Source: a virus
Lineage: Duplodnaviria; Caudoviricetes
Length of the DNA: 40,782 nucleotides
IMG/VR virus record: IMGVR_UViG_3300044677_000023
Coordinates: 1-40,782 of that record
Strand: one strand, 5' to 3'
Part shown: one piece after another, positions 1 to 39,441 of the stretch
Layout of the letters: the number at the start of each line of letters is the position of its first letter
Numbering within the stretch: position 1 is the first letter of the stretch
Notes under the pieces: model-generated
Told to the model about the DNA's origin: nothing
What the model saw: only the letters and a program-made list of their open reading frames with translations
Database searches by the model: none
Program-made: the position numbers and the translations under genes

Positions 1-1311
1 CACTTCGGCTTTTGCAACGGCATCGGTCGAGGCCAGCGAGTTGACGAACACATGGATGCCGTCATTGCCCGAAAACGCCGTGAGACCGAGGTCGGAGACG
101 ATGAACCATTGCGTCGCCAGCGAGCCATCGTCATCGCCGCCCGAACCGGGCCCCTTGGCCTTGGCGGTCATCACGTAGACGCCGGGCTGCAGGTCGCCGA
201 GCGCCTGGTCGACCGGGAATGCGGTGGTGACGTCCTGATTGAGCGTGGTAGTAGTGGCGAGTTCGCCGGACCAGACCTTTACGCCGCGCTCATTGCCGAG
301 ATCGTCGAGCTGGTAGCTGGAGAGCGCCTTCTGGAAGTCGCTGCCGATGACCGTGTTGATCAGGTTGCGGTCGCCGATCCGGAACACCTGCACCGAGACC
401 GAAGGCGTATTGACGCTGACCAGCGGGATGCCGCGCTGGCCGGTGCGCGGCAGCACGTAGGCCCGGCCGGTAAAGCGCACGAACGGTTTGCGGTCGCGCA
501 CGTAGATATTGAATTCGGCGGATTTGGGCAGGCTTTCCTTGACCGTCGACGGCAGGCCGGCGCGCAGATTGATGTTGTAGCGCTCGCCGTGCTTGAGGCC
601 CTCGGCGCAGAGCTGTTTTTCTTCCGAGGACAGCGCCGGCTTGTCGCTCCCCGCCAAAGCGAGGAACGGCGAAAAGTCGGTGCGCTTGGCGAGATCCTCG
701 GAGAACTGGAAGCACGCGCGCGGCGAGGCCGAATCCGAGTCCACGGTGTAATCGAGCAGCCGAAACCCGTGATCGTCGCGCAGCTTTTCGTAGCTTCCGC
801 GGACTTCGGCGACTTCCTTGATGTCGAGCGAAAGCCGTAAGCTATCCAGCGCCGGACGCCACAGCTTGCGGTCAGACAGCGCACGGCCGAGCACGGCAAG
901 GGCGTCCGCCTCTTCCCCGGCATTGCCGGCACGCTGATAGGCGATGTAGGCGGCGGTCGAAGCCCGCTCGAGCAGAAAAGTCTGTTCGCTTGATGTGGCG
1001 GAGCGGATCTGGAAGATGGTGCGGGCCAGCCGCAGCCAGTTGCCGCTGTCCTCCGGCGCGACCGCGGCGATCTGTCCCAGAACCTGCAGCCCGACCCGGT
1101 AATCCCCGCGCTTGAACGCTGCATCGGAATCGGTGCGCAGCGTGGCCGCCGACTTGGCGACGGGACCTGCTTCGCTCTTGATCTGGGCTTCCAGCTTCAC
1201 GGCCGAATCGGCGAGATCGTCGCGTTTGAAGGCCTTATCCGCCGCCTGCGCCGAGACGAGGCCAAGCGCCAGCGTTGCGCAAAGTGCTGCGGCGCGAACC
1301 AAACCGATCAT
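1..1311 (-). CDS. Bacterial alpha-2-macroglobulin family protein, 5' part (runs off the window)
   Basis: Not in the ORF track because it is open to position 1. ATG at 1311 with GGAG upstream; reads MIGLVRAAALCATLALGLVSAQAADKAF...CFQFSEDL...GLKHGERY...QWFIVSDLGLTAFSG, recognised as the rhizobial A2M N-terminus with a signal peptide. Confidence 0.85.
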   Translation of the reverse strand, partial: MIGLVRAAALCATLALGLVSAQAADKAFKRDDLADSAVKLEAQIKSEAGPVAKSAATLRTDSDAAFKRGDYRVGLQVLGQIAAVAPEDSGNWLRLARTIFQIRSATSSEQTFLLERASTAAYIAYQRAGNAGEEADALAVLGRALSDRKLWRPALDSLRLSLDIKEVAEVRGSYEKLRDDHGFRLLDYTVDSDSASPRACFQFSEDLAKRTDFSPFLALAGSDKPALSSEEKQLCAEGLKHGERYNINLRAGLPSTVKESLPKSAEFNIYVRDRKPFVRFTGRAYVLPRTGQRGIPLVSVNTPSVSVQVFRIGDRNLINTVIGSDFQKALSSYQLDDLGNERGVKVWSGELATTTTLNQDVTTAFPVDQALGDLQPGVYVMTAKAKGPGSGGDDDGSLATQWFIVSDLGLTAFSGNDGIHVFVNSLASTDAVAKAEV

Positions 1312-1593
1312 GATGGACTCCCTGGAAGCGGACGAACGCCGCCTGATGGACAGAAATGCGCGAAAAGGTGACGGACTGATGGCCGGGAAGCGGAGAAGCG
1401 AAAAAGTCGCAGACGACATAGCCGTGACAGTCCAGACCACGTGCCGGTCGACGGCCGTGGCTCATGGCGAGCGTTGAGGGCGAACCGGGAGGCCCGCCGC
1501 ACTGCAGTTGTCGCGCCATCGGGCAAATTGGTTCGGTTCAGGCTTGGCAGGGAAGCGGATTTTACATATTGGCGGTGCTATCAGGGCAGCAAC

Positions 1594-1670
1594 GGTCCCA
1601 TAGCTCAACTGGATAGAGTAACGGATTTCTACTCCGTGGGTTGCAGGTTCGAATCCTGCTGGGATCGCCA
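1594..1670 (+). tRNA. tRNA-Arg (anticodon TCT)
   Basis: GGTCCCATAGCTCAACTGGATAGAGTAACGGATTTCTACTCCGTGGGTTGCAGGTTCGAATCCTGCTGGGATCGCCA: full cloverleaf, anticodon stem ACGGA/TCCGT, T-loop TTCGAAT, encoded CCA. Confidence 0.97.
1656..1670 (+). repeat. attL core CTGCTGGGATCGCCA
   Basis: Last 15 nt of the tRNA, repeated exactly at 38953-38967. Confidence 0.92.
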
Positions 1671-1672
1671 GT

Positions 1673-2782
1673 TCATTGTCCAGCTCCTGAGTTTTCAATG
1701 GGTTGATCGCTGTTTTGGCTCATGGGATCAGAGAGTGAGCCAATGCCTGTTCCCGAAACGAGCTTCGCGGCGCCCTTTGCCATCAATTTTCGGTTAGCCG
1801 CTTTCGTGTAGACCTGAGCCTGCGAGATCGACGTCCATCCGAACCATGCCATCAGCTGGTGGTCGGTAGCCCCCTGCTCCGCCAGATAGGTAGCGGCGGC
1901 CTTTCGCAACCCGTGCGAAGTGCAGCGGCTCGGCAATCCTGCCGCTGCGCAAAGATCGCGGAAATGATTGCCGAAACCGGCGGCCGTGAAGGGCTTGCCC
2001 TGCGCGGTGACCAAGAACGTTAGATGGTCGCTTGCCGGCATCGCGTCAATCGCCGCCTGCAGCGCCGGCATCACCTCAACATAAAAGGCGACGCCGGTTT
2101 TCTGCCGGCGCATTGACATTGATCCGGCGCGAACGTGTTGGCGGCCAAGGCGCACCACGTCGCATTTTGACTGCCCGGCCTGCAGCAGCAGCTCGTAAGC
2201 GAGCCGCGCGCGCGTTCCAAGCGGGTGGTGGTTTTCAAACTTGGCGCACTCCCCCGATTCCCAAGGGTGGTGCCCGGTTGTCCTCATCTTGACCAGCTTC
2301 ACTCCAGCGAGCGGGTCGGTTCTGATCATTTTCAGAGACTGGCAGTGATCCAGGAAACCCCGTAGCGCCTTTCTCCAGTTTCGTTGCGCCGATGGCGTCT
2401 TGCCATTGAGGATGATCTGCAGCGCCCCGCTATGCATCAGCGCGACACGCTTGTCGCCGTGCCCTTCGCGAAAGCGCTCCAGGATGGCCCTGCGACCGTT
2501 CTGCGAGCTCTTGGCAAGGCCCTTCGTAAAAGCGGTTGATTGGACATACGCGATGACCGCAGCGTTCACCGTGCCGGGTACAGTGCGCTTCGCGCCGATC
2601 TCGACCTTGCCGGCATCGCCCTGCAGTGCGATTTCCCGCGCGGTCATAAATTCGGGCGACCACGGCAGGCCAGGAAGCGGAATTTTTGCGTGCCCAGGGC
2701 GCCGCAGATAAAAACGCGGCTTCCCGTGCTGGTCGACGTAGCCGTGTGTGAACTTGGGGTATTTCACTTCACGGTGTCCCAT
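1673..2782 (-). CDS. int: Tyrosine recombinase (phage integrase)
   Basis: HGLRKA, FGW and VYTK motifs; N-terminal arm-binding-like region (YVDQHGKPRFYLRR); stop lies 2 bp from the att core. The true start may be the GTG of VKYPKF. Confidence 0.93.
   Translation of the reverse strand: MGHREVKYPKFTHGYVDQHGKPRFYLRRPGHAKIPLPGLPWSPEFMTAREIALQGDAGKVEIGAKRTVPGTVNAAVIAYVQSTAFTKGLAKSSQNGRRAILERFREGHGDKRVALMHSGALQIILNGKTPSAQRNWRKALRGFLDHCQSLKMIRTDPLAGVKLVKMRTTGHHPWESGECAKFENHHPLGTRARLAYELLLQAGQSKCDVVRLGRQHVRAGSMSMRRQKTGVAFYVEVMPALQAAIDAMPASDHLTFLVTAQGKPFTAAGFGNHFRDLCAAAGLPSRCTSHGLRKAAATYLAEQGATDHQLMAWFGWTSISQAQVYTKAANRKLMAKGAAKLVSGTGIGSLSDPMSQNSDQPIENSGAGQ
1715..1743. promoter_or_regulatory. Putative integrase arm-type sites (RTGAGCCAR, 2 copies)
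   Basis: TTGGCTCAT at 1715-1723 (reverse complement ATGAGCCAA) and GTGAGCCAA at 1735-1743; two more copies lie beside attR. Confidence 0.6.
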
Positions 2783-2958
2783 TCGTTGGCGTCGCCAGCT
2801 GACGAAGAATCAGCCTCTGGCTGGCCTGCCACGATAACAATTTTCCCGTCGCGCGGATCGATCTCAATGCGCCTGACGCCAACACCCGCCGCCGCCGCCG
2901 CTTTAAGGGCCTTGGTCACGTCGCCTTGCTTGAAGGTCTGAGTTCCGCGAGACATCAA
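2764..2958 (-). CDS. Putative excisionase / recombination directionality factor
   Basis: 64 aa (FKQGDVTKALKAA...RIEIDPRDGKIVIV...NEWD), overlapping the integrase start, a layout common in alphaproteobacterial elements. Confidence 0.6.
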   Translation of the reverse strand: MMSRGTQTFKQGDVTKALKAAAAAGVGVRRIEIDPRDGKIVIVAGQPEADSSSAGDANEWDTVK

Positions 2959-3122
2959 CCGGCGGCCCTCTTGGGCTGCTCAGCTTCCATTCGCGCCCGA
3001 ATGCTGCGGATAATCTCGCTGTTCTGGCTTGCCAAATTACGGGCTGATTCTTGCTCAATCCACGTTTTCACGTCCTGCGGCAGACGGACCAGGAGCGTGG
3101 TCGTCTTTTCCTTGTGGGTCAT
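2955..3122 (-). CDS. Arc-family ribbon-helix-helix repressor (Cro-like position)
   Basis: LLVRLPQDVKTWIEQESARNLASQNSEIIRSI matches the Arc pattern; ATG at 3122. Confidence 0.85.
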   Translation of the reverse strand: MTHKEKTTTLLVRLPQDVKTWIEQESARNLASQNSEIIRSIRARMEAEQPKRAAG

Positions 3123-3145
3123 GAGTTTAGCCCGCACCAAATTTG

Positions 3146-3205
3146 ATATGGCGTTTATATATCCCTAGTGCCATATTAAAGGCAACCAAAATATGGCACT
3201 AGGGA
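3146..3205. promoter_or_regulatory. Divergent promoter/operator region of the Arc/Arc switch
   Basis: Perfect inverted repeat TCCCTAGTGCCATATT (3162-3177) / AATATGGCACTAGGGA (3190-3205); partial copy ATATGGC at 3146-3152; leftward TTGCCT-N17-ATATAT (3185 to 3157). Confidence 0.8.
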
Positions 3206-3214
3206 CAAGGCTAG

Positions 3215-3523
3215 ATGGCAGCGCGGGTGAAAAAACGGTCCGACACGTCGACCAACCGGGATTCGGATAAAATAATCGTCCGGCTACCCGCTGGAATGCG
3301 AAACGCGCTCGCCGAGGTGGCGGATCGCAACGGGCGGTCGGTGAATGCCGAGGTCGTTCACGCCCTAGCGATCTACTTTGCTCAAGAGGGCATGACGGCT
3401 GACGAGCGCCTGAGGCAGGGGATTGTCGTAAAGTTGAAGGCCGCCCTTGACGGCATAATCCGAGAAGTCGCCGCAGACGAAGTGAGTAGATTTCGGCAAA
3501 AAATCGAACCGCCGGCAAAGTGA
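3215..3523 (+). CDS. Arc/Mnt-family repressor (CI-like position)
   Basis: DKIIVRLPAGMRNALAEVADRNGRSVNAEVVHAL is a classic Arc motif (NGRSVN); divergent from the other Arc gene. Confidence 0.9.
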   Translation: MAARVKKRSDTSTNRDSDKIIVRLPAGMRNALAEVADRNGRSVNAEVVHALAIYFAQEGMTADERLRQGIVVKLKAALDGIIREVAADEVSRFRQKIEPPAK

Positions 3524-3536
3524 ACGGAGCAAACAA

Positions 3537-3740
3537 ATGATCGAAGACGGAAGAGCATTCGGCGCGACGATGGCGCTGAAGCACGTTCTCAGACTGCTCG
3601 AGCGCAAGGGAGTGATCACACACGCAGAAATAATTACGACTTTGGATGACGCTTTGGAGGAGTTGCGCGGTGTCACCTCGTTAGCGCCGGACGCACACGC
3701 GGCGGCTGGCAGAGCAGTCGGTTTCCTTTATGTTCGCTAA
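3537..3740 (+). CDS. Hypothetical protein, 67 aa
   Basis: GGAG SD, follows the repressor, ends before a terminator. Confidence 0.7.
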   Translation: MIEDGRAFGATMALKHVLRLLERKGVITHAEIITTLDDALEELRGVTSLAPDAHAAAGRAVGFLYVR

Positions 3741-3773
3741 CCTGCGGCGATTTTCTGCCGCAAAGCAGCAAGC

Positions 3774-3810
3774 AAAAAAGCCCGCCGGCGCGAACCGGCG
3801 GGCTTTCATT
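3774..3810. terminator. Bidirectional intrinsic terminator
   Basis: AAAGCCCGCCGG-cgcgaa-CCGGCGGGCTTT between convergent genes. Confidence 0.8.
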
Positions 3811-3825
3811 TCAGGCGCGCCTTGC

Positions 3826-4686
3826 TTAGGCGCTAATGTCCTGGAGTATGGCCTTCATCATCACCACCTTGCGCCAGTCGTCGAACAGATCGCCACCATC
3901 GGGCCACTCCGCCATCAGCCCGGCCTTGAACCTCAGCGCTTCGATCGTTGTCGCCGGCGCGGTGACCATCGCCATGACGGCATCGTCGACCTTGTCCTGA
4001 TGTTCCTCCAAGGCTTCCTCGGCGTCGTCGACGCCCATGCTGGCACGCAACGCCACCTTGTCAGCTTGCCAGCGATCGAACGCCGCGACAATGCTGTCCT
4101 TCCGCTGCTGTGCGAGCGGCCATGGCTCGCGCGTCCGGTAAACGTCATAATCGATGCCGAGCGTGCCGATCGGTTCGACCGTCGGCGCGGAGGGCATGTC
4201 TTTCCCGTGCGTCCCCGTTGCGACGTAGCGATCATTGTATCGCATCGCTCGACGTTTCCGCATGGCCTGAATGTCGCTGACTGTGAAGTGGGTTTGGCCT
4301 TTCCAGCGGTCGACACTGCCAAATTCCTTCAGCAGCTCGAAATCGGCGGTGCGGATGAGGAGTCCAGACCGCGGCTGGTCGACGACCGCGAGATAGGCGG
4401 CCTCGAGCTCGGCAAGGCGATTTTCAAGGCTCAAGGTTTGGGCATCGAGCTGGCGCCAGCGATCGCGCAGGGCGATCAGATCGGCTACTTCGGAATGGCC
4501 GCCACACGCCGCCAGCGCGGGCGCAGCGATGGCCGCGGCGGTCGGGATGGCGACGGCAAGGCCGGTTAGGAAGGCGCGACGGGCAAGGCCCCGCGGGGCT
4601 TCTCTCGTCAATGAAGTGTGGATTGAGGTTGACGCGCCTACAGCGCGAATCGGATTTGTGTTATTGAGGATAGCAGCCTTAGCCAT
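3826..4686 (-). CDS. Hypothetical protein with Tat-like signal and lipobox
   Basis: GGAG SD; ARRAFLTG, then a hydrophobic stretch, then LAAC; helical-looking body. Confidence 0.7.
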   Translation of the reverse strand: MAKAAILNNTNPIRAVGASTSIHTSLTREAPRGLARRAFLTGLAVAIPTAAAIAAPALAACGGHSEVADLIALRDRWRQLDAQTLSLENRLAELEAAYLAVVDQPRSGLLIRTADFELLKEFGSVDRWKGQTHFTVSDIQAMRKRRAMRYNDRYVATGTHGKDMPSAPTVEPIGTLGIDYDVYRTREPWPLAQQRKDSIVAAFDRWQADKVALRASMGVDDAEEALEEHQDKVDDAVMAMVTAPATTIEALRFKAGLMAEWPDGGDLFDDWRKVVMMKAILQDISA

Positions 4687-4711
4687 GGGTAGACTCCGTG
4701 GTCGGGGTTAG

Positions 4712-4791
4712 AGCCGGGGCGGAAGTGGCAACTTCCCTCCGGCTTGCTTTTGTGATATCCTTATTTATGGCAAAGTCAATAAATGATATCC
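4712..4791. promoter_or_regulatory. Leader hairpin plus promoter with paired TGATATCC sites
   Basis: Hairpin AGCCGG..GGAAGT-ggca-ACTTCC..CCGGCT (4712-4744); TGATATCC at 4753-4760 and 4784-4791; leftward TTGACT-N16-TATCAC. Confidence 0.55.
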
Positions 4792-5006
4792 CAAAAAAGC
4801 GACGTGGCCGCCCGGCGACGGGTCGCGGCGAAGGAATCCTAGTCCGCCTGCAGCCCGATCAGCTCGCTGGCATCGATACCTGGATTGCCAAGCAGGCTTC
4901 GCCGGTAACGCGGCCTGAGGCCATCCGCGGGATGATTGACGCGACACTGCGCATCCTTTCAAAGGATCCAGGCGAGAAGCTGAATAAAAAGAAAAAACTG
5001 AAATAA
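4767..5006 (+). CDS. CopG/RHH-type DNA-binding protein
   Basis: MAKSINDIPKKRRGRPATGRGEGILVRLQPDQLAGIDTW...TRPEAIR; ATG at 4767. Confidence 0.8.
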   Translation: MAKSINDIPKKRRGRPATGRGEGILVRLQPDQLAGIDTWIAKQASPVTRPEAIRGMIDATLRILSKDPGEKLNKKKKLK

Positions 5007-5098
5007 TCGGAAGGCACCGGGACTGTCAGTCTGTGGATTGCGGGCGTCGGCGTTGATCGCCCGGTGCCGCTGGCGCGCAGCCGTGCGACGCTGAAGGC

Positions 5099-5680
5099 AT
5101 GGACAAGCGGAGCAAATACTTCGGCCTCAATGTCGCCGATAACAATCTAGCGCGCATCAATCGCACTGGCAGAACGACGTTCGGCCATTGGGTCTGGACG
5201 GCAGAGGAGGATAATTTAGTCCGTCAGTTTCATCCTGACTTTGCAAAGTTGAAAAAGCTGCTGCGCCGTCGGTCGATGATCGCGATCAAGCGAAGGGCCA
5301 TAGACCTGAGGCTGGTCAGAGCTCAACACCTCTGGACCGCCAACGAAGTAACGAAGCTCCGGCGCCGGTGGCGAGACTTAAGCAAGGCCGAATTGATCGC
5401 GGAGTTTCCGCGCCACACCTGGATATCCATCAGGTGCAAGGGATCGAAGCTAGGCCTTCGCCGGCGACCTTGGCAGCCCAAGCCGACGGGGAAGCAGCTA
5501 TTGGACCAGATACGAGAACGCGCCGCCTATCTGCACATCTCGTTACTTGACCTTGACCGCATTTGTTTTTCCCGGACTTACTTCGCGAGAAGCAGCCAAG
5601 GCCATTATTCGAGCGGCCGCAACGTCTTGCTTACCGCCGTCGCGGCGCTCGGAGGACGTGTCGAGATTGTTTGGCGGTGA
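5099..5680 (+). CDS. Basic protein with two Myb/SANT-like repeats and a C-terminal HTH-like region
   Basis: WTAEEDNLV...RSMIAIKRRAIDLRL and WTANEVTKL...HTWISIRCKGSKLGL; ends AVAALGGRVEIVW. Confidence 0.65.
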   Translation: MDKRSKYFGLNVADNNLARINRTGRTTFGHWVWTAEEDNLVRQFHPDFAKLKKLLRRRSMIAIKRRAIDLRLVRAQHLWTANEVTKLRRRWRDLSKAELIAEFPRHTWISIRCKGSKLGLRRRPWQPKPTGKQLLDQIRERAAYLHISLLDLDRICFSRTYFARSSQGHYSSGRNVLLTAVAALGGRVEIVWR

Positions 5681-5702
5681 GCGCGCAATTCGGATCAAAA
5701 TC

Positions 5703-5711
5703 TGATATAAT
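5703..5711 (+). promoter_or_regulatory. Extended -10 promoter (TGnTATAAT)
   Basis: TGATATAAT ends at 5711; the ATG at 5718 has no SD. Confidence 0.6.
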
Positions 5712-5717
5712 CCCGCG

Positions 5718-5963
5718 ATGCCCGACACTGTGACCCATTGGACCAATCAGGGAACGTTCCTGATCGAGGAAGTTTTTATAGGCGGATCTTGGAACTACCA
5801 CCTTTGGCACGAGAAAGATAAAAACAAGACCGACCTCAAGCTTTTCACAGATTTCGACACGGCGGCCGAAAGCATCGGGCAAGGCAAGCACGATGAGGCT
5901 CTGGGATTCGCAGCGTCTGCGCTAGGCGTCCCGCCGCTCGTTAAAAACTGGAACAGAAAATAG
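5718..5963 (+). CDS. Hypothetical protein, 81 aa
   Basis: Lower-GC ORF with protein-like composition, directly after the promoter motif. Confidence 0.7.
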   Translation: MPDTVTHWTNQGTFLIEEVFIGGSWNYHLWHEKDKNKTDLKLFTDFDTAAESIGQGKHDEALGFAASALGVPPLVKNWNRK

Positions 5964-6001
5964 AACTAACCGACGACGACCCCAATGAAGCCTATGACGT
6001 C

Positions 6002-6190
6002 GTGCCGATGCCTGACAAACCACATGGGCCGTCCGGCTGGTGGACCGTCACCTGCAACGGGATTCCGGTCAGGCATTTCGGGCCTGATAAAAAGGATCTC
6101 GCGCAACGCTACGCGACCGACCCGGCGTATCGCGCGAGCCTTGCGACGAAAAAGTTGTGGGAAGCTGGTCGCGATAAATCCGAGCAATAA
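6002..6190 (+). CDS. Hypothetical protein, about 60 aa
   Basis: MPDKPHGPSGWWTVTCNGIPVRHF...; followed by a terminator-like hairpin. Start may be the ATG at 6008. Confidence 0.6.
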   Translation: MPMPDKPHGPSGWWTVTCNGIPVRHFGPDKKDLAQRYATDPAYRASLATKKLWEAGRDKSEQ

Positions 6191-6226
6191 AAAACGGCCG
6201 CCCGGCATGACGCCGAACGGCCTTTT
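6190..6226. terminator. Putative bidirectional terminator
   Basis: A-tract, GGCCG..CGGC-atgac-GCCG..CGGCC, then TTTT, between convergent genes. Confidence 0.5.
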
Positions 6227-6274
6227 CCGCGACTGCCGGCAACACGCCGGTTCCGTCGAATTTGTAGAGCGCTG

Positions 6275-6469
6275 TCAGGCCGGATTGCCGCCGCCGCCCT
6301 GGGTGGCAAAGTCACCTTCAAGCGCCGAGCCCGTCTGGCGTTGCACCGCATCGGCCGCCGCGCGCAGCCGGCGAACGACTTCGGTCGTATCATAATCGGC
6401 GCTGGCGCTGCCCTTCATGATCTGGTCGCGCAGGGCATTGAGGGCAGCGACGGTTTCGGCGGCCTTCAT
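6275..6469 (-). CDS. Hypothetical protein, 64 aa
   Basis: MKAAETVAALNALRDQI...; ATGA overlap with the upstream gene. Confidence 0.6.
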   Translation of the reverse strand: MKAAETVAALNALRDQIMKGSASADYDTTEVVRRLRAAADAVQRQTGSALEGDFATQGGGGNPA

Positions 6470-6825
6470 CGCTTCGCACCTGGTCGCGGCGCAACGCCGC
6501 CGATCCCCATCTGATCCGCGACGTAGCGCCCGCGCGCCACTCTGCGCGCCTCCCGTCGATCGGCCGCGGACTGTGCCGGGTGGCATTTCGCCCCGCCAGC
6601 CCACAGCAGCACCATCATTGGCCCTGCCGCGTCGTCCTGCACGGTCGACCATTCGCGGTCACCCTTGAACCTGACCGCATTGCCCCGCCAATCGGCCATG
6701 GGCCGACCGTCGATGGTGCAGCGGATATGGATTGCTGCGCTGGCGGCCGATCGCGGCGCGGCATGTACATTCGACGCAAGGCAGGCGAGCGCAATCGCCG
6801 CCAGAAAGCGGACGGTGTTCAACAT
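6466..6825 (-). CDS. Putative secreted protein
   Basis: Signal peptide MLNTVRFLAAIALACLASNVHA; SD-like AAGGA. Confidence 0.6.
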   Translation of the reverse strand: MLNTVRFLAAIALACLASNVHAAPRSAASAAIHIRCTIDGRPMADWRGNAVRFKGDREWSTVQDDAAGPMMVLLWAGGAKCHPAQSAADRREARRVARGRYVADQMGIGGVAPRPGAKR

Positions 6826-6868
6826 TGGATTTTCCTTGTGATGAAAGGTTACAGTTTGCCGAGCGGTA

Positions 6869-7468
6869 TCAGGCCGCCGGACGCCTATTGCGGAACGTCA
6901 CGAACAGCGTGAGTGCCGCGAAAATAATTCCCATGCCGACCGTGATATAACCCCACGTCTGCGCCGCGCCTTCGGCTCTGGCGGACGCCTGCAGCACCTG
7001 CTGACTTAGAGCCGTGAATTTATCTTCGACCGATCGGATTCGAACGTCGAACCGGTCGTCCAGGGCTTTAATAAGCCCGATCACCTCGGCGCGCGGCATA
7101 AGGGTGGAAGCCTGATCTTTCAATTGGCCGCGAAATTCGTTCTGAGTATCGAGCCGCTGATTCTGCGCAACCTCTGCCTTTGTCGTCGCGCGTTCGGCCG
7201 CGATCAACGCAGCCGCTACAGCATCTTTCGCCGCCGACAAGGCCGCGTCGATTGCCTTGCTGTTATCGAAAAACCGCTGATCGGTTCGGGCGGTGCGCTC
7301 GTTGATGATCGCCAGCAGTTCGCGCCCGGTCGGCTCCGCTGCCTTGCTGATGATCGCCAGCAATTCATGGGCGGTCGGCGCTGGCGCGGCTTGCGCGAGC
7401 GCCGGCAACGGCGCCAACAGCGCAAAGACCAGGACGGCCCAGCGCACCACGTTGCCCCCTATTTTCAT
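6869..7468 (-). CDS. Coiled-coil protein with N-terminal signal peptide and C-terminal TM helix (lysis cassette)
   Basis: MKIGGNVVRWAVLVFALLAPLPALAQ..., Ala-rich helical middle, then WGYITVGMGIIFAALTLFVTFRNRR. Confidence 0.75.
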   Translation of the reverse strand: MKIGGNVVRWAVLVFALLAPLPALAQAAPAPTAHELLAIISKAAEPTGRELLAIINERTARTDQRFFDNSKAIDAALSAAKDAVAAALIAAERATTKAEVAQNQRLDTQNEFRGQLKDQASTLMPRAEVIGLIKALDDRFDVRIRSVEDKFTALSQQVLQASARAEGAAQTWGYITVGMGIIFAALTLFVTFRNRRPAA

Positions 7469-7472
7469 TTCG

Positions 7473-7754
7473 TTATGTCCGTTTTTTGCGCTCTGGCGGA
7501 TGAGCAACCGAATTGCGCAACTGCTGATCGTTTCGCATATCCTCCAGCAGCCCCTTTATGGTGGCGATATCCTTGGCGGCGTCGTGAAGCATCAAATAAG
7601 TCTGCACGTCGCCGCCGGTCATGCCGGCCTTTTTGTCGCGCTGCCCGAGGAACCGCAAATAAATTCCGGCAAACGCCACTGCTACCAGGAAAAGCGCATT
7701 CCAAAACGGCCAGTCCGCAAGCGCGTGCGACGCGTTAGCTACCGGGTCTGACAT
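7473..7754 (-). CDS. Single-TM protein (holin/antiholin-like)
   Basis: MSDPVANAS...FWNALFLVAVAFAGIYLRF followed by a short coiled coil. Confidence 0.65.
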   Translation of the reverse strand: MSDPVANASHALADWPFWNALFLVAVAFAGIYLRFLGQRDKKAGMTGGDVQTYLMLHDAAKDIATIKGLLEDMRNDQQLRNSVAHPPERKKRT

Positions 7755-8157
7755 CGAGAACCGCCCGATATGGTGTGTATGCTTCTGCGATCGTGACGAG
7801 CGCGAAGAAAATCGCCATAGGCGAGGGGAACCCTTGATCCCTTGAGATTCGGTACATCGCCAGCGTGAACGATGCCCATATGACCATGCGAACGATGGAC
7901 GCGAGAGAGCGGACATGCGGGCCGATCTTGAGCGAGCGGCCATTGACGACAAGCGCGACGGCGCCGACCAGCCCAACGAACAGGAACAGCAACGCCGTCT
8001 GGATGGCGCCTATGTTTCCGATCAGCACTTGCAAAATGCTGCCATGGGAACTGTTCGGCCATGTCAGTATCGTTGCCCCTTGCAAGATAAGGTACGCGCT
8101 GCCCAGCCATTCCAGCCGGCGCGCGTCCAGATAATTGGTGATCGGTCGTGAAGGCAT
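7735..8157 (-). CDS. Four-TM membrane protein (lysis cassette)
   Basis: Four hydrophobic segments in 140 aa. Confidence 0.75.
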   Translation of the reverse strand: MPSRPITNYLDARRLEWLGSAYLILQGATILTWPNSSHGSILQVLIGNIGAIQTALLFLFVGLVGAVALVVNGRSLKIGPHVRSLASIVRMVIWASFTLAMYRISRDQGFPSPMAIFFALVTIAEAYTPYRAVLDVRPGS

Positions 8158-8163
8158 CGCGAT

Positions 8164-8673
8164 TTAACCTGGTTGCGGAAACGCCGGCCGCACCGACGCC
8201 TGCGCGATCGTCGCCTGCACTTTGGTTACCGTGTTCGCCTTGGCACTCTTTTCCACCGGGCGAAGCCCGAAGATCGCCAGCGGAATGCCGAACGCGAGAT
8301 AGTCGAACGGAAACGGCAAGGGCGACATTACGATCCCGACAAACTTCGCCACAGCGGGCATCGTGCCCTGCAGGACGACACAGAACCAATAGAACCACGC
8401 CGGCGCGGCATAGGCCGGTCTAATCCATGACGTCCGCTTGTCCTGCCGATCGGCAAGGTTTTGCGTCGCCTGGAGCTCTGCGAATCGGCTGTCTGTCTTG
8501 AAGCCTTCGACCGTGATCTGCGTCGCGGCGGTAACGTCCATGCCGTGCTGATCGGTCAGGGCCTTTTGTTTGGCGGCCCAGCCGTCCGCCAGCGAGCCGG
8601 TGATAGAGCCGATCTGGCCCAGCGCCACCTTGGCGCCGGTGCCCATCAGCCATGCGAGAAATCCGGCGCCCAT
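8164..8673 (-). CDS. Putative holin (resembles the 3TM GTA-release holin family)
   Basis: Amphipathic N-terminus, WIRP motif before two TM segments, ending in FGLRPVEK. Confidence 0.6.
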   Translation of the reverse strand: MGAGFLAWLMGTGAKVALGQIGSITGSLADGWAAKQKALTDQHGMDVTAATQITVEGFKTDSRFAELQATQNLADRQDKRTSWIRPAYAAPAWFYWFCVVLQGTMPAVAKFVGIVMSPLPFPFDYLAFGIPLAIFGLRPVEKSAKANTVTKVQATIAQASVRPAFPQPG

Positions 8674-9315
8674 CTAACTGGCCTTTCGTTTCTTCGAGGC
8701 CTTCTTCTTCCGGTTGCTCTTGACCGGCCGCCGAGCGCGCCGAGCGCGCGCCATCGGTGCGGGTTGCGGTTCGGCCGCCACCTGGACCGCGGGAATGGGC
8801 GCAGGGCCGGGCAAAGGCGCGCGCGGGTCGACGATCGCTGCCAAGGCAGGCGACGGTGTATCGCCTTGGACGTTGTTGCTATTGCCTGCCGTCTGCACGG
8901 CAAGCGCCGGATCAATCGTGTTCGGCGGCGTCGTGGTGTGGTTCCGCAGATAATCGGTCAGGCGGCCCAGCCCGAGGAATACCAGCGGCGAATACTGCGC
9001 GGGTGACAGGGCTGATCCGGCTTCTGCCCATGGCAGAGGTATCGATGGCAGGACGCCGGTCAGGTCGATTCCGCCGCCCGGCTGCAACCATTCGCCGATC
9101 GCATTAATGGTCGGCAAGGCGACGCCGAGCCCGTCCATAAAGCGGGCGAGCATTTTCGTCCGGAGCCCCTTGAACAGCACAAGCACCTTTGTGCCGAACG
9201 ATGCGTCCTGCAGTTCCGGCGCGTGCTGGAGATAGTCGCGCCAGCGCACATAGGCCGGGCGCAAAATCCAGAAGCCGACCAGGACGGCCGCAAGCGCAGC
9301 GATAGCGTAAATCAT
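8674..9315 (-). CDS. Membrane protein with Pro/Ala linker and basic tail
   Basis: N-terminal TM, KGLRTK motif, ends RRPVKSNRKKKASKKRKAS. Confidence 0.7.
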   Translation of the reverse strand: MIYAIAALAAVLVGFWILRPAYVRWRDYLQHAPELQDASFGTKVLVLFKGLRTKMLARFMDGLGVALPTINAIGEWLQPGGGIDLTGVLPSIPLPWAEAGSALSPAQYSPLVFLGLGRLTDYLRNHTTTPPNTIDPALAVQTAGNSNNVQGDTPSPALAAIVDPRAPLPGPAPIPAVQVAAEPQPAPMARARRARRPVKSNRKKKASKKRKAS

Positions 9316-35959: not shown

Positions 35960-37351
35960 CTAATCGGGTTGCTTTAATTTGAGCCGGACACCTTTGAAGC
36001 CCCTGCCCTTCGAATTTTTGTATCGATCGGGCACCCGCTTTTCGAGGTTGCCGACGAAGGCCTTTTGCGTTTCAGGCTTTTCGCCGGCTTGCTTTGCGAA
36101 CGAACACCACGACAGATGTAGCGCCGTGCTGGTCTCCATCATGCGGTCGTTGCCGGCCTCGACGTCGCAGCACGTCGCCAACCATTGTCCGAGCAGATCC
36201 TGGTCGTTGAAGTAATCCTCAGTCGCGGCAAGCACGCGCTGCGGCCTCACAAGGCCGTGCTCCTGCCAGTCGAGGCAGCCGTCGACCATCCAGCGAAGGA
36301 TGCCCGGCCATTCGCCCCGCAATTTATCTTCCAGGCTGTGATCCGGCTTTTCTGGCCGGTGGAGGAACGGCACAATATTGAACCGCCGCCGCACCGCCGC
36401 GTCGACGTTTTCCAGCCGCGGCCGATGATTGCCGATGATTGTCAGCTTGAACGTCGGCCTGTACCGGAAAAAGTCACCTCGCATGTAGCGCGCCGAAACC
36501 TCGTCGCCGCCCGTGAGCAGCTTTATCCTTGTCTCTGCCTAGGCGCGGCCGTGTTCGGTTTCGCTCGCTGCAACCAGCCGCGCGCCGCACAGCGCCGCCA
36601 ACTCGGTCGGATGGCGATCGCCGATCGAGACCGTGAAGGTGTCGCTCGGTGCCGGCGTTGAATAATCGGCCATGATCCCGGCCACGGTGTTCAGAAAGAC
36701 GCTCTTGCCGTTGCCGCCGGGCCCGTGCGCAAACACCAAAGCATGTTCACGGATATCGCCGGTCAGGCAATAGCCCGCCCATTGCTGCAGAAACCGCTCC
36801 ATATCCCGGTCGCCGCCCGTGGTTTCGCGCAAGAAGCACTCCCAAACCGGGCAATCGTTGCGCGCGCTCGGCGCCACCGCAGTTGCTTTCGTGATCCCCT
36901 CTGACGGCGCGCTCGGCCGCAAGGCCCCGGTTCGAAGGTCAACGGTGCCTTCCGGCGTGCCTAAGAGATATGGGTCGCGATCCCAGTAATCTGCGGTCAC
37001 CGCAAAGGCGGCGTCACTTTGTGAAAACTTCTCGACGCCGGTCGCGAACGCCGTTTTGCGAAATTCCTTTAGCTCCTTGAGTTCCTTTCCCTCACTCACC
37101 TCGCGCGCGATCTGCCGAACAAATTCGAAGGCGCGATTGATCTCGTCCCGACGCCAGCGGGCGCCGTCGAACTCGAACCATGATCGGGTGCTGTGGCAAT
37201 ATCGGAGGCGATCGGCGTAGCGCCTGGCGAAGATCCCCGCGATGCCGTCTTGGGTCAGCACACCGGTGTTCCGGCCGACTTCCGCGACGACATGCTGCGC
37301 GTCGGCCTTCCGCCGGCGTTCGTCGTCGAGTGAGACCACATCTTCGTTCAT
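35960..37351 (-). pseudogene. P4/D5-family SF3 helicase interrupted by an in-frame TAG (36539-36541)
   Basis: The two ORFs share a frame: HGPGGNGKS...SETEHGRA*AETRIKLLTGGDEVSARYMRGDFF...IIGNH...RRRF. The stop sits where the family normally has Trp. Confidence 0.85.
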
Positions 37352-38832
37352 GCCGTTGTCCGCGCCTCGAGCTCGCGCGCGCGATGCCAAGCCCAGCCCG
37401 GTTTGAAGCCGCGGGCCATCTCAACAATTTTCGCTCGCGCCGGCGTGTCCGACCATGCGACCACTTGCGAATAGCTCATCCGCCGCAGTTCGGTGGCAAG
37501 GCCGGGCGTGCTTGTCAGCTCTCGCCATAGTTCGAGAGAATCGGCCGCGGCAGGCCTGGGCGGGGCGGCGCAGATAGCGCAAAACGGGCCGGGCCGGTTC
37601 ACGGCGCTGCAGGCCTCGCACCGTCGAAGATCATACCGCCGGCTTTGCTTTGAGCGCGGGATACCCTGCAGACTCCAGCGGTGCGGCTCGTCAGGAAGAC
37701 CATGCTTCAAGACGTTGCCGGCGTGATCGAGCACGATCGCGCGATCTTTACCGGGAGAGCTGCGCAGTACCCTGCCTATTTGCTGCTGATGCAATACCAG
37801 GCTTTGCGTCGGCCGCAGCAGGATCGCCGCCGCTAGGACCGGGACGTCGACGCCTTCGCCAAGCAAATTGCAGTTGCATAGGACTTCAATTTCCGAACCG
37901 AGGCCGCGTATCAGTCGCCTGCGCTCACCATGGGGTGTTTCGCCGTCGACGTGCGCGGCTCTAAAACCAGCTGCGGTAAAAGCGGTTTTGATTTGTTCAG
38001 AATGGCGTCGATCGACCGCGAACACTATCGCGGGACTGCCCGGGCATCGATGCGCGTAGTCTTGAACGGCGCAGTCGATCAGCGCCTGGTCGGACATTAC
38101 AGCCGACAGCTGGTCAATTGCGAAGTCGCCAGCTCGTGTCCTGATGCCTGACAGATCGGGCAGCCGCGCCGGCGTATAGACGATCGCCGGCACAAGATGC
38201 TTCGAGGCGGTCAGCGCGGCGACGCTGGGCCCGCAGATCATCGCTTCGCAGGTGTCCAGAGGTTTGCCGTCAAGACGCTGCGGGGTAGCCGTGACGTGCA
38301 GAAAATCGGCATCGGGGAAAGCGTCGAGCGCTCGGCGCCATTGAGGCGAAACGGCGTGGTGACACTCGTCGACCACGACCAACTGAAAGTTATACTTCGT
38401 CACTGCGACGCGGCCGACCAGCGTCGCAACCATCGCCACCTGGACCGCCTCGTCTGTTTGCGGGGCGTCGGGTGCGATGAAACCGTGCTGCACGCCCATC
38501 GATGACAGCGCAGCCGAAACCTGTTCGAGGATCTCCTGCCGGTGCACAATAATCAGAGTGCGCTTGCCGCGGCTAAGGGCCGATCTGGCGATGTAGCAAA
38601 AAAGCACCGTCTTACCGCCGCCTGTCGCGAGCTGGAAGAGGACGCGACTTGCGCCGGCACGGAACAGCTTGCGCAGCCGGACGATGCCCAAGGCCTGATG
38701 CGGCCAAAGGCTGATTTCAGTTTGAGGGGATTTGCCCGGGCTCGAGACTTCGGTTAAACGATGGTCGTGAAACTCGTCGTATATCGAAGAACCCGCCCCC
38801 AGCGAAGGGCGGGTTTTTTGCGAGCCGGCCAA
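37348..38832 (-). CDS. SF2 DEAD/DEAH-box helicase with C-terminal Zn finger
   Basis: LATGGGKT, DECHH, TATP, EGVDVP, QQIGRVLR and CEAC..CAIC; GGAG 7 nt before the TTG at 38832. Confidence 0.9.
   Translation of the reverse strand: MAGSQKTRPSLGAGSSIYDEFHDHRLTEVSSPGKSPQTEISLWPHQALGIVRLRKLFRAGASRVLFQLATGGGKTVLFCYIARSALSRGKRTLIIVHRQEILEQVSAALSSMGVQHGFIAPDAPQTDEAVQVAMVATLVGRVAVTKYNFQLVVVDECHHAVSPQWRRALDAFPDADFLHVTATPQRLDGKPLDTCEAMICGPSVAALTASKHLVPAIVYTPARLPDLSGIRTRAGDFAIDQLSAVMSDQALIDCAVQDYAHRCPGSPAIVFAVDRRHSEQIKTAFTAAGFRAAHVDGETPHGERRRLIRGLGSEIEVLCNCNLLGEGVDVPVLAAAILLRPTQSLVLHQQQIGRVLRSSPGKDRAIVLDHAGNVLKHGLPDEPHRWSLQGIPRSKQSRRYDLRRCEACSAVNRPGPFCAICAAPPRPAAADSLELWRELTSTPGLATELRRMSYSQVVAWSDTPARAKIVEMARGFKPGWAWHRARELEARTTA
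38790..38819 (+). terminator. Intrinsic-terminator-like hairpin in the first helicase codons
   Basis: AACCCGCCC-ccagcgaa-GGGCGGGTT followed by TTTT. Confidence 0.55.
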
Positions 38833-38858
38833 TCAGGTGCTCCACCGGTTCCGGGCCG

Positions 38859-38919
38859 ATGAGCCAACGTCGGGAAAAGCCCTTTTAGGCCTATCCGCCT
38901 CGATAGGCCGGTGAGCCAG
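38859..38919. promoter_or_regulatory. Putative arm-type sites and palindrome in the attR arm
   Basis: ATGAGCCAA at 38859-38867, GTGAGCCAG at 38911-38919, GGCCTATC-N6-GATAGGCC at 38888-38909. Confidence 0.6.
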
Positions 38920-38952
38920 CCTAAGCCTTTGCGGACGGCCAGCGTTCGCCTT

Positions 38953-38967
38953 CTGCTGGGATCGCCA
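38953..38967 (+). repeat. attR core CTGCTGGGATCGCCA
   Basis: Identical to the tRNA 3' end (1656-1670); phage genes lie to the left and host-type genes to the right. Confidence 0.92.
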
Positions 38968-39002
38968 TCAAGCCCTCTCTTCTCTTCGCAACCAGCCAGA
39001 AC

Positions 39003-39197
39003 CTATTTCCGCCCCAGCTCCTCGCGCTCAAGGACGAGCTTGTCGAGCTCAGCCGTCTGCTGGGCAATCCGGTCGGCGGTCCGCTCTTCGTTTTGGCCGC
39101 CCGAGGCGCCGGCGGCCTGCTCGATCAGCTGCCGGATGTTGTCGCGGAGCACCGCGATTCGGTCGTCCAGCTCTGAAGGCGAAAGATTGCTCGGCAT
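39003..39197 (-). CDS. Host hypothetical protein, 64 aa
   Basis: GGAG SD; MPSNLSPSELDDRIAVLRDNIRQLIEQAA, coiled coil. Confidence 0.75.
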   Translation of the reverse strand: MPSNLSPSELDDRIAVLRDNIRQLIEQAAGASGGQNEERTADRIAQQTAELDKLVLEREELGRK

Positions 39198-39441
39198 CGG
39201 CGCGGCTCCAATTTTCGTCACGGCCCGTCACAGAACCCTAACCTCCGCAGCGGCCACTTCCTACCGAAAAACCCCAGCTTGTTGCGCCACAAGCCCTGCC
39301 TCCCGCCATTTTCCGGCCCGGACGAAACAATTCTCCTACCCCACGAAACCATTTTGGGTTCCCGACGCAATCATCCTGAAACCGTCGCCGGGGCATTCTC
39401 TCGCTCAAGGATACGCCGAAAAGGCGACCGGGGAGCTTCAG

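Follow-up and report, generated by a model that had tools for sequence, protein, structure and literature searches.

The closest described systems are the following. In Tn916, the replication and DNA-processing genes are cut off from their promoter while the element is integrated, and once it has excised, transcription reaches them through the circle joint. These genes are insulated by a terminator near the end, and the gating is described as the work of the promoter Porf7, the terminator T1, and the antiterminator RNA canT (PMC11658703). In the myxophages Mx8 and Mx9, attP lies within int, and integration alters the 3' end of int (PMC6070905). Mycobacteriophage BPs has its attP in the repressor gene, from which integration removes a C-terminal degradation tag, favoring lysogeny (PMC3694055). 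In ICEclc, excision joins the promoter Pcirc to int (PMC5812530). The regulated gene integrity treated in PMC10111431 is that of target genes and not of the element's own genes.

An open reading frame that spans attP

We analyzed a 40,782-nucleotide stretch of viral DNA (the window) that represents a 37.3-kb prophage whose head and tail genes are podovirus-like. The prophage is integrated at a tRNA-Arg(TCT) gene, which stays intact in the lysogen and was the sole match in an Rfam search of the window. A tyrosine integrase adjoins this intact tRNA, and the tRNA 3' end is directly repeated at the far end, so the element is a tRNA-targeting tyrosine-integrase prophage. Its host is probably Bradyrhizobium or a near relative, because those integrase homologs that carry names come from Bradyrhizobiaceae, where this tRNA stretch is found as well. 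At another locus (L054), a sequence resembling the far-flank host gene directly follows the tRNA. The features discussed below are collected in Table 1.

Table 1. Positions of att-site, recombination, and replication features in the window.
Feature	Position	Strand	Remarks
tRNA-Arg(TCT), integration target	1594..1670	+	ARAGORN, Rfam
att core, integrase-side copy, 15 bp	1656..1670	+	tRNA 3' end
Codons 1-2 of attP-spanning ORF	1671..1676	-	ATG (1676-1674) overlaps int TGA as ATGA
Tyrosine integrase, 369 aa	1673..2782	-	PHROG 1, PF00589; oriented toward tRNA
Shine-Dalgarno-like AGGAG	1684..1688	-	Within int 3' end, 7 nt before ATG
IHF-like site	1693..1705	+	Putative function; one mismatch to the IHF consensus, WATCAANNNNTTR
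Two arm-type-like repeats, int 3' end	1716..1742		TGGCTCA at 1716, TGAGCCA at 1736; putative integrase arm sites
Excisionase-like ORF, 63 aa	2764..2955	-	Putative role, from position; no Pfam/PHROG match
Divergent Arc-like regulator pair	2955..3523	2955-3140 -, 3215-3523 +	PHROG matches
D5/P4-type helicase	35960..37390	-	In-frame TAG at 36541-36539; points inward
Superfamily 2 helicase (ResIII + Helicase_C), 494 aa from TTG	37348..38832	-	Points inward
GC-rich hairpin, terminator-like	38785..38820		Predicted folding; helicase codons 5-16
Far part of attP-spanning ORF, 44 codons + TGA	38833..38967	-	TGA at 38835-38833
GGAG inside bridge ORF	38840..38843	-	7 nt before helicase TTG
Two arm-type-like repeats, far end	38860..38918		38860-38866, 38912-38918; attP ORF reads through both
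att core, far copy	38953..38967	+	Supplies five codons of attP ORF

The recombination genes are tightly packed. The excisionase-like ORF overlaps the stop of the Arc-like gene with its start (TGATG) and the start of int with its end, and the Arc-like pair is likely the switch that holds a putative early promoter. The order arc > xis-like > int at one end and helicase > D5 at the other places all of these genes on the minus strand, codirectional across the joint; after att joining they form an overlap chain on this one strand, arc > xis-like > int > bridge > helicase > D5. Elsewhere in the prophage, the ∼6 kb between the Arc-like pair and the lysis genes (3537-9300) carries 10 tested ORFs without a PHROG match, several of them on the plus strand, and is possible cargo.

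A preliminary description of the window had proposed that excision creates an ORF across attP that leads from int to the helicase. On recomputation, the AGGAG, the ATG, and its ATGA overlap with the int stop were found where that description had placed them. The frame opened by this ATG stops after 15 codons in the lysogen, and joining the att cores instead gives 46 codons, as claimed; its TGA abuts the in-frame helicase TTG, and the GGAG ahead of that TTG is present. The int TGA ends 2 nt before the core, which is therefore not inside the int coding sequence. At the far end, a host TGA stands in frame just before the core in the lysogen, and therefore no host frame enters the far ORF. The warning that such a frame may arise by chance is borne out for this single stretch, whose 39 codons stayed open in 32% of 20,000 base shuffles and are unremarkable taken alone. 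A function for the peptide read in the lysogen was considered and rejected, as its length varies with the frame (13, 35, or 68 codons from the core). A sigma-70 scan of 38400-39400 found no promoter, which is weak evidence given its E. coli-type consensus.

Start codons and open frames in relatives

Does the arrangement recur in related elements? An ATG, GTG, or TTG was present 5 to 9 nt from the core in 31 of 35 distinct integrase ends (20 ATG), compared to 24 of 107 tRNA-Arg loci without an integrase hit (8 ATG; Fisher P = 3e-12). The start was at or beside the int stop in 27 of the 35 ends, and Shine-Dalgarno-like words were present in most of the relatives' integrase ends. Conceivably, the ATG and Shine-Dalgarno sequence could be by-products of integrase and IHF sites plus the TGA stop, with the open frame due to chance. 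TGA preceded by A, G, or T automatically makes a start codon, and the shuffles of the window's own frame agree with such a reading. However, the base before an int TGA within 25 nt of the core was A in 19 cases, G in 6, and never C or T (n = 25), whereas host frames had A in 34, G in 41, C in 54, and T in 23 (n = 152), in a tally made by hand that excluded L420 (C; its stop lies 60 nt upstream) and L013, where the stop falls past the core. The start position also varied among 5, 6, 7, and 9 nt from the core. Moreover, in more distant integrases that end in TAA or TAG, an ATG directly follows the stop (L301, L308, L309, and L315); therefore, the start is not a mere by-product of TGA. Together with the frame counts given next, the conserved start largely refutes the by-product reading, to which we assign very little probability.

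The attP sites of relatives were rebuilt by locating and fetching the second cores and joining the ends in scripts, and native attP sites were also used. Relatives share a far-end layout of core, 34 nt, arm repeat, and second arm repeat, and the repeats in the window have the same spacing. Although the far arms of the 20 elements are only 31 to 71% identical, the frame set by the start was open through the second arm repeat in 19 of them, compared to an expectation of 6.5 (shuffling with the motifs fixed) or 6.1 (dinucleotide shuffling) of 20. Five of the 20 pairings combine ends from different contigs, and for five elements (G197, G172, G002*, G003, and L285) position decided which start was used. 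The count does not include G504 (which has no canonical start), the far ends L416 and L417 (which have no int side), or the tandem/partial-tRNA junctions L384 and L378, closing at 20 and 37 aa. In a strict set with both ends on one contig and a start overlapping the int stop, 10 of 11 frames were open (P = 2e-4), and 9 of 10 remained so when the window itself was removed (P = 3.5e-4). The exception among the 20 was G393, whose frame is broken after 19 codons.

The open frame was not always the same one. As set by the start, 8 elements use frame 0, 11 use frame 1, and 1 uses frame 2. None of the 11 frame-1 elements had frame 0 open (pairing permutation P = 4e-5), and frame 1 was open as well in 6 of the 8 frame-0 elements. 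For pairs added after the rule had been fixed, the four with a canonical start were all open; the fifth, G504, has ATA at the start position and a frame 0 open for 40 codons. The frame label changes ∼4 times on a tree of 28 integrases, from which 7 partial integrases were left out, and because the elements are related and frame switches on this tree are few, these P values overstate independence. Integrases only ∼38% identical, at other tRNA-type cores, show the same design (L308, L315, L316, and L347). In these distant viral loci, for which both ends were found, the frame runs for 87 to 167 codons and the others close within 10 to 26; L315 and L316 are near copies, and in L347 other starts nearer the core close early. 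A search with a combined arm motif matched 0 of 414 loci.

Since relatives keep this layout, the open frame exceeds chance, and the conservation of the Shine-Dalgarno sequence, start, and frame that the preliminary description asked about was found. At the level of sequence comparison, the layout of a start at the integrase end and a startless open frame at the far end is confirmed as real and conserved in relatives, in three frames.

The peptide sequence is not conserved. The peptides are unrelated across the three frames, and their lengths range from 42 to 287 codons. The peptide of the window is probably a by-product of the att DNA sites, because the conserved residues map only to the core and arm DNA repeats. 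One could instead suppose that the 46-aa peptide is itself a functional product signaling excision; in favor are the conservation of the frame and the conserved domain that the ORF of some relatives contains. However, the lack of relatedness among the peptides of the three frames, the confinement of conserved residues to the repeats, and the absence of a PHROG match for the attP ORF make a functional peptide highly improbable. In some relatives, the attP ORF is a full protein.

In G180, G273, and G132*, the attP ORF is a 149- to 218-aa member of one unnamed family, and P0255 and P0258 show, by eye, this family behind a frame-1 arm peptide. The family, often encoded at the far att end (L401:5571-6221, L405:330-956, and L431:1501-1944), has 29 database hits without a Pfam match (P0241-P0269), several of them entries with host-derived or truncated N termini. 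Another small domain is fused after the bridge both in frame 0 (G353*) and in frame 1 (L284; E = 3e-10). The database protein P0264, read at the protein level, begins M-R directly before the core-encoded residues, as the int ends of G005 and G353 predict.

In the viral contigs L284 and L285, where no tRNA adjoins, int is followed by a single core and then by the far arm; these junctions may be excised forms or tandem insertions. The native junction ORF is open and overlaps the next start in both, with 83 aa in L284 and 54 aa, in the third frame, in L285. In L284 it leads via overlapping ORFs to an HTH_36 protein. The 7.4-kb contig L284, which at 1207-5471 has int, a native attP-like junction, an HTH_36 Rep-like gene, and, by eye, a capsid-like ORF, looks like a capsid-forming satellite.

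Other observations concern the use of the tRNA site. Close relatives of the integrase (L389 and L394) occupy another tRNA-like sequence, one whose 3' end is similar, and retain SD-ATGA in frame 0. The IHF-like word of the window also occurs after the tRNA 3' end in many loci that lack this integrase (among L004-L123), which suggests that other integrase families use the same tRNA site. Tandem or nested insertions at the same tRNA-Arg (L396 in G064, L397 in G197, L384, L378, L419, and L420) carry partial tRNA copies of up to ∼40 bp.

The junction with the next gene

In the window, the helicase appears to begin where the bridge ends. Against a start well downstream, no in-frame ATG, GTG, or TTG other than TTG 38832 precedes codon 48, which is already inside the Pfam ResIII match (beginning at residue 40). 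The closest helicase homologs begin at the equivalent place, with a poorly conserved extension of 40 to 55 aa whose start is often 3 to 4 codons ahead of a QN/QK motif. Gene callers supplied these starts, and for other homologs they chose a later ATG. Two of the refuting conditions named in the preliminary description, a frame not conserved in relatives and a helicase start well downstream, therefore did not hold. In the close helicase relatives L363, L126, and L376, a small ORF upstream has its stop within ∼15 nt of the helicase start, and the bridge occupies the position of this ORF in the window.

The bridge and helicase are in frame, and such fusions exist in the relatives G180, G273, G132*, and G003 (149 to 287 aa). 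The bridge TGA might accordingly be a recent nonsense codon, or be read through, in a helicase once fused and starting at the int-side ATG; the D5 gene also has a nonsense codon. We regard this as improbable, since the TTG has a Shine-Dalgarno sequence 7 nt ahead of it, the starts of several of the closest helicases fall 3 to 4 codons before the same QN/QK motif, and the three sequencing runs covering the TGA codon gave no other letter there.

Our preferred interpretation is that the attP ORF is an excision-made translational bridge from int to the helicase and that expression of the replication genes is likely confined to the excised circle; we consider this reading probable, with roughly two chances in three in its favor. 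Under it, derepression at the Arc-like pair would lead to expression of xis and int, and excision would join the ribosome-binding site and start to the startless far frame, giving the 46-codon ORF. A single early transcript would then cross attP. Ribosomes would restart at the ATGA and cover the 135-nt recombination arm, which would limit Rho termination; a second restart would follow at the weak TTG, shortly before the GC-rich hairpin. In the lysogen, the helicase operon would be severed both from the upstream transcript and from the ribosomes that feed it, keeping the replication genes silent until excision.

The main rival to coupling is anti-polarity alone, in which the ORF would be selected to keep ribosomes over attP against Rho termination while the helicase uses its own Shine-Dalgarno sequence and the abutting stop is incidental. 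It fits the peptide's lack of conservation and variable length, the GGAG of the helicase itself, and the 10 of 23 bridge stops in relatives that have no close next start. On the other hand, the TTG is weak, the Shine-Dalgarno sequence and TTG of the helicase are predicted to be partly paired, and stops met next starts more often than in controls. Counting overlaps of up to 20 nt led by a Shine-Dalgarno sequence, 13 of 23 bridge stops did so compared to 106 of 473 control stops (P = 6e-4). For strict junctions alone, with the bridge stop at -4 to +3 of a start that opens at least 45 codons, the excess was modest (9 of 23 versus 93 of 473; P = 0.03). We judge anti-polarity alone to be unlikely. 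The 101-nt helicase start region folds no better than its shuffles (z = -0.66).

A stop/start junction is present in part of the relatives, and the link from int to a helicase, which is present in the window, does not hold throughout the relatives, in which the next gene is not always a helicase. Most next ORFs after bridges have no Pfam match. Replication-type genes occur within 1 to 4 ORFs in L315 (Toprim primase, AAA_25), L284 and G064 (HTH_36), and G004* (AAA_25), and the next gene is not replication related in G353* (cold-shock domain) and L285 (YspA SLOG). A search with the helicase profile placed no relative beside a tRNA or this integrase among the loci listed, and single-protein scans of viral contigs found no close relative; the helicase had a match in 13 of 401 Bradyrhizobium genomes. 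Among the loci fetched with the profile, only the window held both this integrase and this helicase, and the exact int-bridge-helicase junction was therefore seen once.

Several elements have an A-run and then a GC-rich hairpin shortly after the start of the gene that comes behind the bridge: the window (38785-38820), L395 (∼6500-6530), L407 (∼500-530), and L402 (∼510-550). Related helicases have this arrangement at their start as well. It is possibly a translation-sensitive attenuator. The hairpin of the window has its better T run on the plus strand, opposite the helicase, and is absent from the terminator-scan calls.

Is this copy intact? The in-frame TAG of the D5/P4-type helicase corresponds to Trp in the 82%-identical L124 homolog. 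Contigs of runs X1 and X2, which may derive from the source sample, span the TAG with no other letter, an X3 contig ends on it, and the nonsense codon is real. The design is real in the clade, but with this codon the present copy of the prophage may be defective, including for replication. Contigs from three DNA runs extend through 38953-38967 into the host sequence and show no attP joint or loose end at the far junction; contigs drop rare variants, so a missing attP joint there does not mean that there is no excision.

Significance and comparison with known systems

More broadly, a widespread clade of alphaproteobacterial tRNA-targeting integrases could use attP as a universal translation switch. 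The int end would donate the start, and the head of an operon (helicase, primase, Rep, or cargo) would be decapitated on integration and restored on excision, with the arm kept stop-free in the frame that the start sets. We lean only slightly toward this generalization. Such a design offers a simple, hard-wired ordering of excision before replication at the level of translation, free of any regulator, and bears on how prophages and satellites avoid in-place replication. It predicts a second evolutionary constraint on att arms, namely, that one frame contain no stop. Genes of this kind escape annotation in integrated genomes, where gene callers assign them host-derived or truncated N termini, and the design is relevant to Bradyrhizobium integration vectors that employ these att sites.

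The literature searched, which leaves out most subscription papers, yielded no account in which a start codon is donated across attP. The locus resembles Tn916 in having its replication genes at the end opposite the (here putative) promoter and codirectional across the joint. However, Tn916 as described gates transcription (Porf7, T1, and canT), whereas at this locus a translation start and its reading frame are separated by the att site (PMC11658703). As in the account of Mx8, attP lies within a phage coding sequence, so that recombination rewrites a gene (PMC6070905); unlike in Mx8, int stops short of the core, and the gene that is split is an ORF distinct from int, divided behind codon 2. 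As reported for BPs, the state of recombination sets which form of a phage gene exists (PMC3694055), but here integration removes the start, and the product sequence is not conserved. The Arc-like genes, moreover, lie at 2955-3523, away from att, and the attP ORF does not match a repressor or any other PHROG family, so the arrangement is not of the BPs type. The likeness to ICEclc is that excision connects a gene at one end with an expression signal located at the opposite end (PMC5812530); unlike in ICEclc, it is int that donates a Shine-Dalgarno sequence and start codon to the far-end genes. The att-split translation start belongs with the excision-gated expression known from Tn916, Mx8, and BPs and differs in form from each of them.
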